A DNA stretch of 64,000 nucleotides, taken from the NCBI GenBank assembly GCA_027263115.1, contig GCA_027263115.1_3656.1; one strand, written 5' to 3'. Source of the stretch: a phage. The notes beneath the pieces were generated by a model, which was not told where the DNA came from, ran no database searches, and worked only from the letters and a program-made list of their open reading frames with translations. Positions 4,078-58,715 of this stretch are shown here, in pieces (the first letter of the stretch is position 1; each line of letters begins with the position of its first letter). Both the position numbers and the translations under genes were made by a program.

Positions 4078-4340
4078 TATTCTCCTCCTTCTTTTGAATA
4101 GCTTGTCTCTCCAAGGATGGTAATTTTGGTGTCAAGCTCTGTAACTTTCATGTTTGGTGGCAGATCGTACAACTCATTATTTTCTAAATCGAACCCCCAC
4201 ACACAATGTTCTCCTGTTTTGACAATCATAACTATGTTTTGAATGCCGTCTCCGTCGCAACTTACCACGGTCCCACACGGAAAGCTGTCTGCACGCTTTT
4301 TGTTCTTCACCTTAGAATTGAATACAATGCTGGTAGCCAT
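4077..4340 (-). CDS. small protein, tandem paralog 2 of 3
   Basis: 87 aa; MATxxxFxSxxKxKK start shared with the 4340-4603 paralog. Confidence 0.55.
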   Translation of the reverse strand: MATSIVFNSKVKNKKRADSFPCGTVVSCDGDGIQNIVMIVKTGEHCVWGFDLENNELYDLPPNMKVTELDTKITILGETSYSKEGGE

Positions 4341-4603
4341 TATTGTTCCTCCACCATAACTTCGCCAAGAATTTCTATGCAGGCATCCATTTCTGTAACA
4401 ACCAAACTGTGAGGTAGTTCTACAAACACCTTTCTGAACAGGTCAAATACCCCAACATATATGTTTGCAGGATGTGATTTTACAACAAGTGCTGTATTCA
4501 CATCCCCAAGTTCATCAACAAACATCACCACAGTGCCTGGAGCTACTGAGGACAGATACTTCTTAGTTTTACGGTTTGATGCAAATTTTAACTCTGTTGC
4601 CAT
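4340..4603 (-). CDS. small protein, tandem paralog 1 of 3
   Basis: 87 aa; first of three head-to-tail paralogs. Confidence 0.55.
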   Translation of the reverse strand: MATELKFASNRKTKKYLSSVAPGTVVMFVDELGDVNTALVVKSHPANIYVGVFDLFRKVFVELPHSLVVTEMDACIEILGEVMVEEQ

Positions 4604-10923: not shown

Positions 10924-11304
10924 ATGGCTAAAGTAGGTAAGCGGGGAAACTACCTGGTGGTATTGACCGAGGAGCCGGAGAAGGAGTACGAATGCAGCTC
11001 CACTTGCGTGATCGATATCCGAGAAAAAGATGTAGATGAAATCTGGTTTAAAATATTGGACGCTTGCGATAGCAGTGATTATTTCTTCATCTATGTCAAC
11101 GATAAGGCTGGGTTCTTCCATGACGACGGAGAGTTGCCGTATGAAATCTATGAACTTGTAGAGGCTTGCCATCGTGGAGATGCGGAGTTGTTTGGCTTAC
11201 GGCTGAAAAGCGGTAAATTCTTCTATCAAGATGAGTGCATGAATCTTCATAACTTTGTAGAGGGAACTTGCAACGATGGAGAGATTTTGGCACACTACGA
11301 TTAA
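10924..11304 (+). CDS. hypothetical protein
   Basis: 126-aa ORF with AAGGAGG RBS. Confidence 0.5.
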   Translation: MAKVGKRGNYLVVLTEEPEKEYECSSTCVIDIREKDVDEIWFKILDACDSSDYFFIYVNDKAGFFHDDGELPYEIYELVEACHRGDAELFGLRLKSGKFFYQDECMNLHNFVEGTCNDGEILAHYD

Positions 11305-11352
11305 TTTCTAATACCACCCCGCTTCGGCGGGGATTTTCTATTTGGAGTTATT

Positions 11353-11853
11353 GTGAAAATTAAGATCTTTGCTATTATTTTGAGCGCATTTTTATCGCTG
11401 CCTGTTGTTGCAGCACCAAAACAAAAAGTATATCATACTTGCAAGCCCTCAGATACTAAGGAAAACATTTTGGCATGTAATATCTACAGGGAAGCTAGAG
11501 GGGATGGCACGATGGGTATGCTGGCATCTGGGTTTGCCACATTAAACAGGAAATCTCACCCTAAATACCCAGACACTATAAGAAAGATTGTCTACCAACC
11601 TAACCAGTTTTCGTGGACAAACCACGGCAAAACTTTTAAGGTGACAGAAAAAGATTCATGGGATCACGCTAAAAGTCTTGCAAAGATGCTTCTAAAGGTC
11701 TATAATAACAACCATGTTGCATACATGGCTATGGATATAACAGGTGGAGCAACACACTACCATACAACCAAAGTACGACCGAAATGGGCAAAAAAGATGC
11801 AGAGGACAGCTCAATTCGGGAGCCATATCTACTACAAGGAGCGCAATAAATGA
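11353..11853 (+). CDS. secreted cell-wall hydrolase, SleB/CwlJ family
   Basis: N-terminal signal-like peptide MKIKIFAIILSAFLSLPVVA; YREARGDG...LNR...YPDTI...QPNQFSW and ATHYH motifs match the Hydrolase_2 fold. Confidence 0.7.
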   Translation: MKIKIFAIILSAFLSLPVVAAPKQKVYHTCKPSDTKENILACNIYREARGDGTMGMLASGFATLNRKSHPKYPDTIRKIVYQPNQFSWTNHGKTFKVTEKDSWDHAKSLAKMLLKVYNNNHVAYMAMDITGGATHYHTTKVRPKWAKKMQRTAQFGSHIYYKERNK

Positions 11854-13832
11854 TTGTAAACAGTAATGAAACTAAAGCAGTGCTAACCGGAAATATGGAG
11901 GTCACCAGGGGCTCAATTTCTCTGAACAAAGAGACTTTTGGGCTAATCATTAAAGGGATTTACGAAGATAAGGTGCTGGCAAGCTGCCGTGAACCAATCT
12001 TCAACGCTGTAGACTCCCATGTTGAGTCTGGACGGGGTGATGTACCGATCATCATTCACTCTCCTACAGACCTTGAACCATACTTCTTTGTGCAGGACGT
12101 TGGATTGGGCATGTCAGAAGAGATGGTCCGCAACACGTTCATGAACCTTGGAGAGTCAACCAAGCGCAACAGTAACGCTCTGGTAGGTAATAAAGGTGTT
12201 GGTTCAAAGGCTCCGTTCAGCATGGTGGACACTTTCGATGTTATCAGTGTGCACAATGGTGTTGAAAGCACATATCTATTGTTCTTGGATCAGGGTATCC
12301 CAAACGTTACCAAGATCCGCGAGCGGAAGACTGAAGAGCACAACGGGGTAAAAGTTCAGTTTCATGTTAAGAAAGAGCATGTCCTGAAATATCGCACTGC
12401 TATTGCATCGTGCTTACGCTATGCGAAGTTTCCGTTCACCGTCACCGATCCCATGACCAGTAAGATGTTAGAAGGTGACAAGGTTGAGGCACAGTATCAT
12501 TACGAGAAGGATGGCTGGAAAATGACCATCCTGAAAGGTTATACCAGTTCTGATGAGAGCCGTGTTGTGATGGGTCACCAACCTTACCGCTCTAAGTTCC
12601 TGGAGACATTGACCGATTACCCTGCAATCTGCGTGGAAATTCCTATCGGGGATTGCAATATTAACCCTGGGCGTGAATGGACCATTGAGGGCCATGACGA
12701 CGGTGGATTCCAGGATCGCCTGGAGGCCTTTGTTAAAGAAGGTATACGTCTTCGCGGGGCAGAAGTTGTTGCAGAACTGGAGACGGCAAAAACCTCAGCA
12801 GAAGCACGTGAAATGATGAAGAATAGTGGGGTGTTCGGACACATCTTCGGCAAAAACTTTATGTGGAACCGTTGGGAAGAAACAGGGCTTGGCGACTTAG
12901 GCGATTGTGAAATTTTCGCTGGCGGCTTAAATAAAGGCCGCATAGGCTATGCTCGTTACGGAAAGTCGGAGTTCTTACGAGGTGTATACCTTGTATTTAA
13001 CGACGGAGACGGCAAATATAACCGAAATAAGTGTAACTACTTAAGCGAGATCACCGGACGCAACGTTTTCTATTGCCGTAACACGGATCTGGTGGAAGAG
13101 TTTAAAGAAGCGGCACACCACCCGTTCTTTGCAGATACGGTCAAATTGTTATCAGAGCTCCCTCGCCGACCTGCGAAGAAAGGTGAAACAAAAACTCATT
13201 ACGAGCCAGGTTATTGGGTTAAAAAGCTTGAGAAGGATGGTTACTTCCGTCGTGAACGTATTACTAAGGCAGAGTTCAAGAAGATTAAGCACTGCATTCC
13301 TTATGAGGGTGATATCCAACGTGGAAGTTGTTGGCTGGGACAGCTGAGTAACATCTACCAGCAAAATTATGACCGTGTGCGTGCGGCACTCCAGATTCCT
13401 GAAGGGGAAGACCTGTACCTGGTATCAGAATCCCGTCTGCTTTGGACTAATCCTGATTGCCAGTATGTTACAGAGAAAAATGTGGAACATTTGTTGAAAG
13501 AGGACGCCTGGAAATTCTTACTGACTCGCGCAGCAAATGAAACTTCATATGACAGCCTGTATAGACAATTAGGGAAAATTATCCCCATGCAGGATTTTGG
13601 AAATTATCGGCCACATTTCCACAAGTGGGAAGGTAACACCGCGTGGAAGCACAGTGAGCTAAATCATCGTGCCAAAATCTTAATCGCCAACCGGGTTAAG
13701 TGCGGGAAGGCCTATATTGCAAGATTGGAAAAGAAATATCCACTTTTGAAGCATGTGGGCTTGAAATATTGGGACACTCCTGCTATGATTGAATACCGTG
13801 AACTGATCGATACAAAGAATAACATCAAATAA
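11850..13832 (+). CDS. rIIA: rIIA-like protein with GHKL-type ATPase domain
   Basis: VQDVGLGMSEEMV and GNKGVGSKAPFSMVDTFDVISVHNG align with the T4 rIIA N-terminal ATPase-like region as recalled; followed by rIIB. Confidence 0.8.
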   Translation: MIVNSNETKAVLTGNMEVTRGSISLNKETFGLIIKGIYEDKVLASCREPIFNAVDSHVESGRGDVPIIIHSPTDLEPYFFVQDVGLGMSEEMVRNTFMNLGESTKRNSNALVGNKGVGSKAPFSMVDTFDVISVHNGVESTYLLFLDQGIPNVTKIRERKTEEHNGVKVQFHVKKEHVLKYRTAIASCLRYAKFPFTVTDPMTSKMLEGDKVEAQYHYEKDGWKMTILKGYTSSDESRVVMGHQPYRSKFLETLTDYPAICVEIPIGDCNINPGREWTIEGHDDGGFQDRLEAFVKEGIRLRGAEVVAELETAKTSAEAREMMKNSGVFGHIFGKNFMWNRWEETGLGDLGDCEIFAGGLNKGRIGYARYGKSEFLRGVYLVFNDGDGKYNRNKCNYLSEITGRNVFYCRNTDLVEEFKEAAHHPFFADTVKLLSELPRRPAKKGETKTHYEPGYWVKKLEKDGYFRRERITKAEFKKIKHCIPYEGDIQRGSCWLGQLSNIYQQNYDRVRAALQIPEGEDLYLVSESRLLWTNPDCQYVTEKNVEHLLKEDAWKFLLTRAANETSYDSLYRQLGKIIPMQDFGNYRPHFHKWEGNTAWKHSELNHRAKILIANRVKCGKAYIARLEKKYPLLKHVGLKYWDTPAMIEYRELIDTKNNIK

Positions 13833-13842
13833 GGAGACCAAG

Positions 13843-15048
13843 ATGATTTTCATCTACGAACATTTCAAAACTCGTAAAGAAGCACGTGACCGCCGTGCAG
13901 AACTTGAGAAGAAGGGTTTCACATGTGCCATTGAGAAAGGCGACACAACCTGGACACTGGCAGTTGGTGCCCCAGAGTTGTTCGATCCTGACCGTGACAG
14001 CGTCTGCTACACCCGTGAGGATTTTGAAACCCGTGAAGAGGCCCGTTTATTTAGATATGGGCTGGAAGATAACGGTAAGTACGCCATGATCTTAGACTTA
14101 GGCGAAGGTTCCGTTAAACGTTGGGGCGTGGTATACCCACTGTGTGTTGTTCACGGTGTGGGGTTTACTGGGGTAGCAATCAAGTCAGAAGAACCTTTAG
14201 TAGAAGTCAAAGATCCGGTGCTGGAAGTGGTGAGCAGTGTGTCTCAGCAACAGACTCGAAGCATCGAGCCTTTGGTAGTTATTTGCGGGGAACTCCTCCA
14301 GATCACCTGCAACGAAGGAATTTTTGAAATTCGCCGCAGCGAAAGTGAGGAAGTTTACCAGAAAGTCTTCGACCATATCTCTGTTCAGGAATATGATGAG
14401 GCAATTGGTGAAATCCTTGTCTGGCTGGAACGCAAGAGTGAGTTCACCACACTTGCAGACAACCTGATCATGAAAGATGGTAAGCTCTACTACTACGGTG
14501 TAGAGATGCGATCCACCATTGCAAAGAAAATTGAGAAAGATTATGCAGACGGAACGCTGGATGACCGCTATGTGAAATTCCTCGTTCGCCTGCTACGCAA
14601 TCCTTCTGCAAAATCTGTAAACATGCTCTACGATTTTATGCAGGCCAATGATATTCAGATTGCAGAAGATGGTCGAATCATTTGCTACAAAGGGGTTCAG
14701 TTTAACGGCAGCAAGTGGGTGGATTGGCACAGTGGTAAAGTCCCACAATACCAAGGTGCTTTTGTATCCATGCCTCGTAACTTTGTAGAGGATGATCCTG
14801 AAGCTGCGTGCTCCTATGGCTTACACTGCGCCAGCAAAGAGTATGCAAAGAGCTACGGCACTGTAATGACTGTCATGGTTGACCCTGCAGATGTAGTTAG
14901 TGTGCCATATCAACACAATAGCGCTAAGTGCCGTGCATGCCGCTATGAGATTGTGGTAGCTCCGGAAGCACGCAAAGATGGAGACCCTATTGAATATGTA
15001 GTTGATCGTGACGGTAACACTATCGACATTCTTTACGAGGAGGCGTAA
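13843..15048 (+). CDS. rIIB: rIIB-like protein
   Basis: LYDFMQANDIQIAEDG, CSYGLHCASKEY and SMPRNFVEDD resemble conserved T4 rIIB blocks as recalled; sits directly after rIIA. Confidence 0.8.
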   Translation: MIFIYEHFKTRKEARDRRAELEKKGFTCAIEKGDTTWTLAVGAPELFDPDRDSVCYTREDFETREEARLFRYGLEDNGKYAMILDLGEGSVKRWGVVYPLCVVHGVGFTGVAIKSEEPLVEVKDPVLEVVSSVSQQQTRSIEPLVVICGELLQITCNEGIFEIRRSESEEVYQKVFDHISVQEYDEAIGEILVWLERKSEFTTLADNLIMKDGKLYYYGVEMRSTIAKKIEKDYADGTLDDRYVKFLVRLLRNPSAKSVNMLYDFMQANDIQIAEDGRIICYKGVQFNGSKWVDWHSGKVPQYQGAFVSMPRNFVEDDPEAACSYGLHCASKEYAKSYGTVMTVMVDPADVVSVPYQHNSAKCRACRYEIVVAPEARKDGDPIEYVVDRDGNTIDILYEEA

Positions 15049-24721: not shown

Positions 24722-25564
24722 AAATAACATTGTGGCTTCATAGAGTGATCTATGTCGAATAACCTCTTTAATTGACGGGAAAGCTAAGTTGACTTTTACA
24801 CCTGAGTATGGTAAAAGCTCAATATGCTAATCCGCAGCGAAGACTAAAGGGGTGTAGTTAAAATGGCTAGAACAGCTGATTATCACGGGTATACCGTGTT
24901 TGATGATGGAACAATACCTTTATCGAAACGTGATCATACAACAATGTTTTGTTTTGATAATGGTAGAGGTTACCTTTGCGTAACCATGCTAATCGAGGGG
25001 AAGCAGTGCACAAAAGGTGTCCACCACCTGGTTGCTGAATGCTTTGTATCAAACCCAGATCCTGAAAGGCTCACATGGGTGAACCATAAGGATGGGAATA
25101 AGTACAACAATGCATACTGGAACCTGGAATGGACCACCCCTGGTGGAAATATCAAGCACGCCTATGATAATGACCTCAGAGTAAGGCCAGTTGGTGAGTA
25201 TAATGCCAACGCTGTGCTGACAGAAGATGAGGTAATAGAGATTTGCGAACTGTTGCAGAGTGGTCTACGACAATGCGAGATTAGGGATCTTGGATATCCT
25301 TATGAGACCGTCAGGGCTATAAAGCAAAGAAGACAGTGGAAACATATCTCTAAAAACTACACCTGGTAGTAACGTTCAGAGACTATCGAAAGCATAGCTC
25401 CAACACAGGTTGGTGTGAAGAAGCGAGTAGAGTAGGCCAGCAAGTGCGGTCGAAATGGGAGGTGCCTTGTTACCAAGGCAGTGAGGTAGTCCGATCCATA
25501 CAGGAAACTGTATGGCTATGCACGTAATGGTGCGGGGTAGCTTAACGACCTACCTGAACAGATG
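24722..25564 (+). mobile_element. group I self-splicing intron with embedded homing endonuclease ORF
   Basis: P element aattgacgggaaag (24770-24783), Q aatccgcagc (24839-24848), R gttcagagacta (25374-25385), S tagtcc (25487-25492); 5-prime exon ends in U, intron ends in G; 843 nt, multiple of 3. Confidence 0.75.
24863..25369 (+). CDS. HNH homing endonuclease (intron-encoded)
   Basis: HHLVAECF and VNHKDGNKYNNAYWNLEW match the HNH_3 family; own RBS. Confidence 0.85.
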   Translation: MARTADYHGYTVFDDGTIPLSKRDHTTMFCFDNGRGYLCVTMLIEGKQCTKGVHHLVAECFVSNPDPERLTWVNHKDGNKYNNAYWNLEWTTPGGNIKHAYDNDLRVRPVGEYNANAVLTEDEVIEICELLQSGLRQCEIRDLGYPYETVRAIKQRRQWKHISKNYTW

Positions 25565-41700: not shown

Positions 41701-41717
41701 TTTCAGCAGGTGATTTT

Positions 41718-42068
41718 ATGAAAATAAAACTATATTACCTTAATGAGCTTAACCCCCTTGCCCAGGTCCGCGCCATAGCTAATACCTTGATTTGTGAGAA
41801 ATCTGTATATTGTGTTGAGCTTAACGCCATGCGTGAACGTCTCAAAGGTGGTTACTTTGACATCCATACTGCAATCAACGGCCTGAATATGGAATTTATA
41901 CGCTTACGTAACAGCCGCTGGAATCTGGCAAGAATGGAACAAGATCCGGCCTACCTTCGTAAGCTGGTTATTGAAAATCATCTGATGTTTAATGCCGAGG
42001 GTGATTATTACCATTTTCACCGCAGACGCTGGTACCGTGGCGGCAATACAGGCAAGAATGCAAAATAA
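41718..42068 (+). CDS. hypothetical protein
   Basis: 116-aa ORF. Confidence 0.55.
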   Translation: MKIKLYYLNELNPLAQVRAIANTLICEKSVYCVELNAMRERLKGGYFDIHTAINGLNMEFIRLRNSRWNLARMEQDPAYLRKLVIENHLMFNAEGDYYHFHRRRWYRGGNTGKNAK

Positions 42069-43189: not shown

Positions 43190-43435
43190 ATGAAAAGCAA
43201 TAAAGGTTATAACGGTTACAAAAACAAAACTCATTGGAATGTAAGCCTTTGGATTAATAACGATGAGTCATTGTACCGGTTGGCCCAAGGCTTTATTAAC
43301 GCCAATGCTAATCGTAATGATGCGGCGCGGGATATGATGCTTTTTCTGGAGCTAACCGGACAAGATAAGACCCCGGACGGCTTCAAGTACAGCACTACGG
43401 CGATCCGTGCCGCGATGGTTGGAATGAAACACTAA
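43190..43435 (+). CDS. hypothetical protein
   Basis: 81-aa ORF with AAGAGG RBS. Confidence 0.55.
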   Translation: MKSNKGYNGYKNKTHWNVSLWINNDESLYRLAQGFINANANRNDAARDMMLFLELTGQDKTPDGFKYSTTAIRAAMVGMKH

Positions 43436-43511
43436 AAGCATATAGCCGCCTTACCCTGGGGCCGCTGCTACGGCCCCATGAATAAGGTTACTAACAGAAG
43501 AGAATAAACAC

Positions 43512-46880: not shown

Positions 46881-47166
46881 GGCAACTATGCAAACGAATG
46901 GCATGGCGCGACGGAGTCGCGACATAATATAAAAGCAGTAACCATCACCCCCGTGATAGTTTGTCTGCAATCTATTAATCAGATCATAGTTGCCTTGTAT
47001 TTAGTTAATCATGACATAACAAGCAAGGCAACTATAGATCTGCTAATAGTTGCCCTGCTTTTATATTATGTCATAGGAACGCCCGAAGGGGTGACCTAGT
47101 CACCTGGCATAGCCAGCGAAAGATTATTAACTTGGTAATAGTTATCATGCAAACGAATGGCATGGC
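46881..47166. repeat. nested inverted-repeat structure flanked by 20-bp direct repeats
   Basis: direct repeat atgcaaacgaatggcatggc at 46888 and 47147; 18-bp inverted repeat gacataatataaaagcag (46921) vs ctgcttttatattatgtc (47055); 12-bp inverted repeat atagttgccttg (46986) vs caaggcaactat (47024). Confidence 0.6.
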
Positions 47167-47177
47167 TTATCATCTCT

Positions 47178-47300
47178 GTGTAAACAGTCAATCATGTAAA
47201 CTATTAGATATGTAAACAGTAAAGGGCGTGAACAGTAAGCGAGGGAATAGTAATAGCGTGAATAGTGACAGCGTAAACAGTGACAGCGTAAACAGTCAGG
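47178..47300. repeat. iteron-like GTAAACAGT repeats
   Basis: at least six copies of GT(A/G)AA(C/T)AGT, including two tandem 15-bp units gacagcgtaaacagt at 47267-47296. Confidence 0.6.
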
Positions 47301-47400
47301 CATGTCAATTATGTCATATTGTGTCACCATTATGTCACTATTGTGTCACCAGTATGCCCAGTATGTCAATTGAGTCTAAAGTGTCAAAGGTGTCAGACAA
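47301..47400. repeat. 10-bp-periodic TGTCA tandem array
   Basis: about ten units (catgtcaatt, atgtcatatt, gtgtcaccat ...) each containing TGTCA or a near variant at helical-turn spacing. Confidence 0.6.
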
Positions 47401-58487: not shown

Positions 58488-58715
58488 TTAGGTGCGGTCT
58501 CCATCCCTACTCTCCTTCCTGATATTCTTGTAGTAATCAACTAGGCACATTATTACGATGAAGATAACAACAGGCCAAAAAGGTGCAGCAGTGATGATGG
58601 TGATAAAATCATCAAACTTCACCCTTCGTCTGGACACGATGCATACACCTGTCAAGAATACCGCTGTTATAACGGACATTACCAGGTAACCTATTAGCAC
58701 AACATTTATACTCAT
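58488..58715 (-). CDS. hypothetical membrane protein
   Basis: two hydrophobic helices. Confidence 0.5.
   Translation of the reverse strand: MSINVVLIGYLVMSVITAVFLTGVCIVSRRRVKFDDFITIITAAPFWPVVIFIVIMCLVDYYKNIRKESRDGDRT

Follow-up and report, generated by a model that had tools for sequence, protein, structure and literature searches.

SleB of Bacillus is an exported lytic transglycosylase that acts on spores and requires muramic-delta-lactam, which is absent from E. coli peptidoglycan. Among phage enzymes, the SAR endolysins (P1 Lyz, phage 21 R21 with its partner S21, and phiKMV gp45) reach the periplasm by Sec-dependent, holin-independent export. Lys44 of Oenococcus phage fOg44 carries a bona fide cleavable signal peptide and is also exported independently of a holin; it is the sole endolysin of fOg44, is encoded beside the holin, and works in a Gram-positive host. 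Homologous Hydrolase_2 proteins are encoded among DNA-metabolism genes in Nankokuvirus and Pakpunavirus (PAK_P3 gp151, PAK_P1 gp159 and K8_033), and the PAK_P3 gp151 family has been proposed to act as auxiliary wall-degrading enzymes. The closest described relative of the gene considered here is gene 002 of phage rV5, which is annotated as 'cell wall hydrolase' (gp002, YP_002003504).

The window, by which is meant the whole 64,000-nucleotide stretch of DNA that was analysed, derives from a Vequintavirus with 95–99.5% nucleotide identity to rV5, to the BASEL phages DrSchubert and RudolfGeigy, and to others, and it is collinear with rV5 coordinates 13466 to 1 joined to 137947 to 88773. Its hydrolase protein is identical to rV5 gp002 apart from the reading of the GTG start, and the gene occupies the same position 5' of rIIA behind the same terminator, t003, with no substantive difference between the two loci (Table 1). 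The two genes differ at nine synonymous codons and at no non-synonymous codon, 116 phage records encode the protein at 95% identity or more, and the hydrolase is under strong purifying selection. The gene is present in essentially all Vequintavirus genomes, and its orthologue family (CB7_83, CR3_087, 4MG_270) is reported in all Vequintavirinae genera (CB7 paper). Several elements of the locus are already known, namely the gene itself (rV5 genome paper), t003 (rV5 Table S4), and the signal peptide, conservation and toxicity of the orthologue (CB7 paper). The presence of two lysins has also been noted in genome announcements; what is new here is the cross-lineage comparison only.

Table 1. Features of the hydrolase locus and of its context, in window coordinates.
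Feature	Position	Strand	Basis or remark
Intrinsic terminator t003, hairpin CCCCGC-TTCG-GCGGGG followed by ATTTTCTATTT	11317..11343	+	Terminator scan
Shine-Dalgarno GGAG	11344..11347	+	5 nt 5' of GTG; sequence reading
Hydrolase gene, 166 codons plus stop, GTG start	11353..11853	+	ORF reading, Pfam, PHROG
Signal peptide, residues 1–20 (MKIKIFAIILSAFLSLPVVA)	11353..11412	+	Predicted SPase I cleavage between VVA and AP
Mature predicted periplasmic SleB/CwlJ-type catalytic domain, residues 21–166	11413..11850	+	Pfam, AlphaFold2, Foldseek
Codon GAA, Glu47, predicted catalytic, motif Y-R-E-A-R-G-D	11491..11493	+	Alignment with SleB
rIIA	11850..13832	+	Context gene; PHROG 612, E=1e-124
rIIB	13843..15048	+	Context gene
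ORF129, two-TMD putative holin	58488-58715	-	In the window, 47 kb from the hydrolase

The hydrolase matches Pfam Hydrolase_2 (PF07486; E=2.1e-19; score 70.4 bits, curated gathering threshold 27; profile positions 2–100 of 100) over residues 51–161, and it matches PHROG 938, labelled 'endolysin', at E=1.7e-27. Its YREARGD motif aligns with YGESRGE of the SleB structures 4F55 and 4FET, which are the sole PDB matches in a phmmer search (E=2.5e-6), and the phage protein shares the Y-x-E-[AS]-R-G-[ED] motif and the fold of the Bacillus enzymes at an identity of only 21–24%. Glu47 is invariant in homologue alignments of 12 and of 40 sequences. Its partner in 4FET_B is chain residue 120, which by alignment arithmetic would be Glu151 of B. 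anthracis SleB. The SleB counterpart of Glu47 is essential for transglycosylase activity (PMC12331253). An AlphaFold2 model built from 40 homologues has a mean pLDDT of 92.5, and a Foldseek search with it returns the SleB catalytic domains 4FET and 4F55 with probability 1.00 and TM 0.72–0.79 on the target; beyond SleB domains it returns no match below E=1. Residues 21–35 form a short linker and a strand in the model, and the protein has one Pfam domain only, with no N-terminal PG_binding_1 three-helix domain. In this it differs from SleB, and its architecture is CwlJ-like and single-domain. The mature protein of 16.9 kDa has a pI of about 9.9 and contains Cys30 and Cys42. Taken from motif and model, the hydrolase is a predicted lytic transglycosylase of the SleB/CwlJ family. 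The host of the phage has neither spores nor muramic-delta-lactam and, given SleB's need for the latter, activity on the E. coli wall is assumed by analogy.

The N-terminus of the hydrolase consists of MKIK followed by a 17-residue hydrophobic core, IFAIILSAFLSLPVVAA, with a mean Kyte-Doolittle value of 2.5, no Gly, and 35% Gly/Ala/Ser/Thr. Pro occupies position -4 and the predicted cleavage site conforms to the -3/-1 rule; no lipobox is found by the same check, which was rule-based. The predicted anatomy matches a cleavable Sec signal peptide, whereas a SAR anchor would be rich in Gly/Ala. The initial annotation had described a secreted SleB/CwlJ-type hydrolase at this position and named signal-peptide and SAR-domain prediction as checks. 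PF07486, the SleB fold and the features of a cleavable signal bear out that description, whereas a strongly hydrophobic, Gly-free core with a cleavage site speaks against a SAR domain. No in-frame ATG precedes codon 54 in the hydrolase ORF.

Export signals are widespread among the relatives. Every one of the 110 full-length proteins among 121 database homologues carries one, either SPase I-like (15) or with a lipobox (95); ten of the other 11 begin at an internal Met just 5' of the catalytic motif, and the last is a motif-less fragment. A hydrophobic N-terminus is also found in 60 of 79 diverse IMG/VR relatives. The homologue encoded by T5-like phages bears a classic signal peptide, and those of PAK_P1 and PAK_P3 begin with a membrane anchor that shows no obvious site for cleavage, unlike the hydrolase of the window. 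For CB7_83, the Certrevirus orthologue, a signal peptide has been reported, as has toxicity on expression in E. coli, the latter as 'data not shown' (CB7 paper).

Set against the known classes of phage lysin, the hydrolase resembles SAR endolysins in its predicted Sec-dependent, holin-independent export, but it belongs to another catalytic family, has a Gly-free and strongly hydrophobic N-terminal segment with a signal-peptidase site, and lacks both the SAR type of N-terminal TMD (by rule-based assessment) and a partner pinholin. It also departs from canonical holin-dependent endolysins, as an export signal is present and no holin or spanins are its neighbours. With Lys44 it shares a cleavable signal on a muralytic domain, predicted by rules in the case of the hydrolase; however, the hydrolase is accompanied by a separate canonical lysin, has no adjacent holin, and would act in a Gram-negative periplasm.

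On the coding strand between 7232 and 22239, no ORF other than the hydrolase contains a hydrophobic segment, and therefore no holin or spanin lies nearby, as had been noted from the sequence. The conventional lysis genes of rV5-like phages are located elsewhere. The rV5 lysin gp085 (ORF89), a lambda-R-like member of the Phage_lysozyme family, is encoded at 71.6 kb and adjoined by a small membrane ORF, and the spanin pair gp067/068 adjoins the terminase at 60.9–61.6 kb. Previous work supports the identity of this lysin: gp085 was termed the 'obvious lysin', its purified orthologue LysECP26 lyses permeabilised Gram-negative cells, and the LL12 endolysin in the Center for Phage Technology annotation is the gp085-type gene and not the SleB-like one. 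Since a conventional lysis set exists elsewhere in the phage, the hydrolase is an extra lysin and not a displaced or main endolysin. The gp085 counterpart and the spanins fall outside the 64-kb window, which made the status of the hydrolase as a second enzyme invisible to the initial annotation; its placement of the gene outside a lysis cassette was correct, and the phage nonetheless has such a set in gp085 and gp067/068.

The hydrolase lies among early or middle genes. On its 5' side are those for an acidic protein of 126 aa and for a MoxR-like ATPase, and rIIA and rIIB on its 3' side are followed by a Dda/PIF1-type helicase, a primase-helicase and DNA polymerase, a setting for which the earlier label of replication module is roughly right. 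As had been noted, the hydrolase is directly upstream of rIIA/rIIB: the ATG of rIIA overlaps the hydrolase stop codon (ATGA), and the two genes are probably on one transcript and coupled in translation. According to Kropinski et al., rV5 genes 10-1-238-164 form one unit with sigma70-type promoters, and a T4-late-like motif occurs in rV5 only upstream of structural genes; no such motif is present upstream of the hydrolase. Sigma70-like matches near the hydrolase are weak and not in excess of those in shuffled sequence (14, against 10.9 expected), and no promoter is found between t003 and the hydrolase start. A candidate internal promoter for rIIA lies at 11678-11706.

The t003 stem (CCCCGCTTCGGCGGGG plus a T-run) ends 20 nt 5' of the GTG, and its dG is listed as -16 kcal/mol in rV5 Table S4. 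In KB57, 4MG, PAK_P1 and K8 the homologue is likewise preceded by an equivalent hairpin, at a distance of 19–20 nt, whereas the Stephanstirmvirinae and Vibrio phage helene homologues have near-consensus sigma70 promoters in place of the hairpin. The 'tttggag' context of the start is also found in KB57 and 4MG, and five of six Vequintavirinae/Stephanstirmvirinae representatives use GTG or TTG starts. A strong terminator combined with a GTG start is in keeping with a toxic product that is made at a low level. Measured timing comes solely from PAK_P3 gp151, a Pseudomonas phage homologue that is 33% identical to the hydrolase (E=3e-21); its transcript is already present at 3.5 min, at a level that does not differ from that at 13 min (log2FC 0.62, p=0.28). 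The PAK_P3 authors put gp151 forward as a possible cause of the build-up of cell-wall precursors in infection and suggested an auxiliary metabolic role. Thus the proposal of an early-acting lysin receives indirect support from the sigma70-driven unit, from the absence of a late motif, and from equal PAK_P3 transcript levels at the two times.

A comparison of synteny across nine other lineages and 80 loci from IMG/VR separates the hydrolase from its rII neighbours. The gene order in Vequintavirus, as represented by the window, is hydrolase, rIIA, rIIB, helicase. Seunavirus 4MG has the same order with a 57-aa ORF (a TMD plus a basic tail) between hydrolase and rIIA, and Mydovirus KB57 has at this position an unannotated 51-aa ORF homologous to that of 4MG; in both small ORFs a TMD is combined with a second segment rich in Gly/Ala and with a C-terminus that is basic. 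In Certrevirus F5M2A, the hydrolase is followed by an overlapping 65-aa two-TMD ORF, a 61-aa ORF, and a helicase 40% identical to that of the window, and rII is absent. The two-TMD ORF was proposed as a class II holin, and CB7 lacks rII entirely yet keeps the hydrolase (CB7 paper). The homologues of Justusliebigvirus, Phapecoctavirus, T5-like phages, Menderavirus, Vibrio phage helene and PAK_P1 lie among DNA-metabolism genes, with no rII in the 4.5–6 kb on each side. Likewise, rIIA, rIIB, gp003, the MoxR ATPase and the Dda helicase are found within 6 kb of none of the 80 IMG/VR hydrolase loci. Among the lineages examined, adjacency of hydrolase and rII is confined to Vequintavirus, Mydovirus and Seunavirus. 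The rII genes of T4 are not known to have a comparable neighbour.

Two further candidate associations were rejected. The small membrane ORFs of 4MG, KB57 and Certrevirus have no match below E=0.03 in a tblastn search of the whole rV5 genome, which speaks against a relocated pinholin in rV5. A linkage with rV5 gp003, which is homologous to T5.083, is likewise discarded, as no gp003 homologue was found within 6 kb of the hydrolase in T5-like phages, nor in any other lineage. Small membrane ORFs occur beside IMG/VR hydrolases in 28 of 79 cases downstream and in 33 of 79 upstream, counts that derive from mechanical ORF calls, have no baseline, and for that reason carry no weight here.

An exported Hydrolase_2 protein is present in addition to a complete conventional lysin in at least four unrelated lineages, Vequintavirus among them. 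Phapecoctavirus encodes a PF00959 lysin plus a PF07486 protein; Certrevirus CB7 a T5-Lys-like peptidase plus CB7_83 (CB7 paper); and Pakpunavirus K8 an endolysin-holin-spanin cassette, K8_079-082, plus K8_033, which coexists with it as the hydrolase does with gp085. T5-like phages have the known T5 L-alanyl-D-glutamate peptidase in addition to their hydrolase homologue. In these lineages the hydrolase genes sit among early/middle nucleotide-metabolism or replication genes, and the PAK_P1 and K8 homologues share with the window gene a terminator-like hairpin upstream. A search of the literature on the function of Hydrolase_2 proteins of Gram-negative phages found only annotations and in-silico surveys.

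These observations are best accommodated, with a probability of about 0.6, if the hydrolase is an accessory lytic transglycosylase, exported by Sec and soluble in the periplasm, whose action on the sacculus precedes lysis triggered by the holin. Read-through of t003 would make the hydrolase the first gene of a message that continues into rIIA, rIIB and the helicase, as part of an early/middle unit driven by sigma70. Inefficient translation from GTG would be followed by Sec export and cleavage after Ala20, and a Cys30-Cys42 disulfide would probably stabilise the enzyme. During infection it may then cut glycan strands in the sacculus of the host, at a level low enough to be tolerated. A likely benefit, although a conjectural one, would be a pre-weakened or remodelled wall that permits fast and complete lysis once the holin frees gp085, with release of muropeptides or wall precursors as a possible side effect.

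The chief rival to this accessory enzyme is a second endolysin that is exported by Sec ahead of time, is harmless while the membrane is energised, and is unleashed on PMF collapse caused by a holin or pinholin, after the manner of fOg44 Lys44 or of SAR endolysin/pinholin pairs. The holin-like membrane ORFs directly 3' of the hydrolase in three sister genera point towards such a true lysis role: the proposed class II holin of Certrevirus overlaps the hydrolase stop, the homologous TMD ORFs of 4MG and KB57 fill the space before rIIA, and the arrangement recalls SAR/pinholin pairs. The uncleaved-looking anchors of the PAK_P1 and PAK_P3 homologues and the PHROG label 'endolysin' lean the same way. 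However, the rV5 genus has no membrane partner, either adjacent or anywhere in rV5, a cleavable signal leaves no tether by which the enzyme would be kept inactive, a complete canonical lysin is present in every lineage checked, and the PAK_P3 homologue is expressed early and not with the late lysis genes; on balance we consider this explanation doubtful. It is also unlikely, since the catalytic Glu is conserved and CB7_83 has been reported to be toxic, both of which argue for cleavage of the host wall, that the protein has next to no activity on E. coli peptidoglycan or serves a periplasmic role apart from lysis, such as superinfection exclusion, muropeptide signalling or recycling, or a block to wall growth or division. 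A role of this kind would agree with the early expression of the PAK_P3 homologue, with its authors' auxiliary metabolic proposal, and with the retention of the gene beside nucleotide-metabolism genes in several lineages.

The initial annotation had offered two other roles, and neither fares well. It suggested that the hydrolase acts in lysis timing together with the rII genes, which may be framed as a lysis-timing or membrane-integrity module in which rII protects the membrane from the exported lysin, or vice versa. The ATGA overlap and shared transcript are in keeping with such a module, as is an order of hydrolase, (small TM ORF), rIIA, rIIB and helicase that is kept in Vequintavirus, Mydovirus and Seunavirus, and in Certrevirus a two-TMD protein takes the place of rII in the slot between hydrolase and Dda helicase. 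Yet the adjacency is limited to these three Vequintavirinae genera, rII is absent within 6 kb of the hydrolase in all 80 IMG/VR loci and from the 4.5–6 kb flanks in six other lineages, and CB7 retains the hydrolase without rII; co-function with rII is rejected as a general explanation and is improbable for this locus. The other role, a virion-associated lysin, which would breach the wall at DNA injection, would suit a small muralytic enzyme encoded outside a lysis cassette, as some phages package such enzymes. Virions assemble in the cytoplasm and a Sec signal takes the protein out of that compartment, which makes a virion role hard to reconcile with the sequence. Moreover, a search of the rV5 virion MudPIT file (19 proteins) for six peptide strings diagnostic of gp002 found no match, CB7_83 is missing from the 26 proteins that MS identified in CB7 virions, the 166-aa protein stands alone and is encoded in the early/middle arm rather than the structural arm, and a gp25-like baseplate lysozyme has already been proposed for the injection role (CB7 paper). 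The hydrolase is not a virion protein, and we give this proposal hardly any weight.

Beyond the single locus, a broader interpretation of the accessory enzyme can be put forward tentatively. In large virulent phages of Gram-negative bacteria, exported early/middle SleB/CwlJ-type enzymes may carry out an unrecognised, conserved step of infection, a deliberate low-level cleavage of the sacculus from the periplasmic side well ahead of holin triggering, throttled by upstream terminators and weak start codons, and an ancestral pinholin-like partner in Vequintavirinae may have been lost in the rV5 genus. If true, this step would be common to Vequintavirinae, Stephanstirmvirinae, T5-like phages, Pakpuna- and Nankokuvirus, and others, and would serve wall conditioning or muropeptide release. 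The locus would bear on a long-standing problem only if the hydrolase had a functional tie to rII, which comparative genomics makes unlikely.

The two-lysin pattern occurs in many large lytic phages used in therapy and biocontrol, including rV5-like, T5-like, phAPEC8-like and PAK_P1/P3-like phages. In their annotation, the automated label 'endolysin' conflates two functions, as it is also applied to an enzyme that is encoded outside the lysis cassette and is not late where its expression has been measured. The hydrolase could supply a naturally secretable muralytic scaffold. Models of lysis timing would gain precision from knowledge of whether its role lies in faster lysis, wall remodelling or muropeptide release.

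The whole window is best matched in GenBank by MG065658, MG065661, MG065682 and about 13 further records, at 99.5% identity. Genomes of this group are unannotated, are titled 'Campylobacter phage C7/C9/A112b...' and give C. jejuni as the host. The sequence under these titles is that of a typical E. coli Vequintavirus, and the records are probably mislabelled or contaminant entries. In a blastn map, five stretches of the window (Table) have no alignment to rV5 and represent indels or replacements with respect to that genome. The stretch beginning at about 24787 adjoins the DNA polymerase region; introns or homing endonucleases occur there in relatives.

Upstream of the hydrolase lies the acidic protein gp003, for which T5.083 is a reported homologue; gp003 is not linked to the hydrolase homologue of the T5-like phage, nor to that of other lineages. 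A sigma70-like site within the hydrolase ORF could drive rIIA/rIIB expression apart from the hydrolase, and it cannot be told from chance statistically (14 such sites found versus 10.9 expected in shuffles).

In the Mydovirus KB57 locus that encodes a hydrolase homologue, an unannotated 51-aa ORF, MKKFLVIFVCITPLCVILSLSQPMYWEQICGAYAIGMATAAFRLNINNCKK, is 49% identical to 4MG_271, the small membrane ORF between hydrolase and rIIA in Seunavirus 4MG, and has a holin/pinholin-like layout; no counterpart of it is present in Vequintavirus. A 78-residue protein, ORF129, which has two TMDs and whose C-terminus is basic, was put forward as the holin candidate by Kropinski et al., and its orthologue is encoded in the window, at a distance from both lysins.

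Features of the window and of the KB57 locus
Feature	Sequence	Position	Strand	Remark
rV5 gp003 (PHROG 12370), 126 aa	window	10924-11304	+	upstream neighbour of hydrolase
sigma70-like site, TTGCAA-17-TATAAT, 10/12	window	11678-11706	+	about 145 nt 5' of rIIA start
rV5 ORF129 (RefSeq gp124) orthologue	window	58488-58715	-	92% nucleotide identity
no rV5 alignment	window	about 4088-4592
no rV5 alignment	window	about 24787-25431
no rV5 alignment	window	about 41714-42058
no rV5 alignment	window	about 43204-43493
no rV5 alignment	window	about 47019-47390
KB57 51-aa ORF	KT934943 (L093)	about 142,820-142,980		between KB57_245 and rIIA

The hydrolase homologues differ in their N-termini. Those of the Pseudomonas phages, PAK_P1 gp159 and PAK_P3 gp151 (loci L010 and L097), begin with a hydrophobic helix, METLEALVLSILLAFIGMFLD..., and because this N-terminus is acidic rather than basic and has no obvious signal-peptidase site, it suggests a membrane-anchored, not soluble, version of the hydrolase. 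About 95 of the 121 database homologues (P0006-P0120) form a tight clade sharing a lipobox-like signal, ...ALLLSTASC, which suggests that they are lipoprotein versions of the enzyme, from an abundant environmental phage group.
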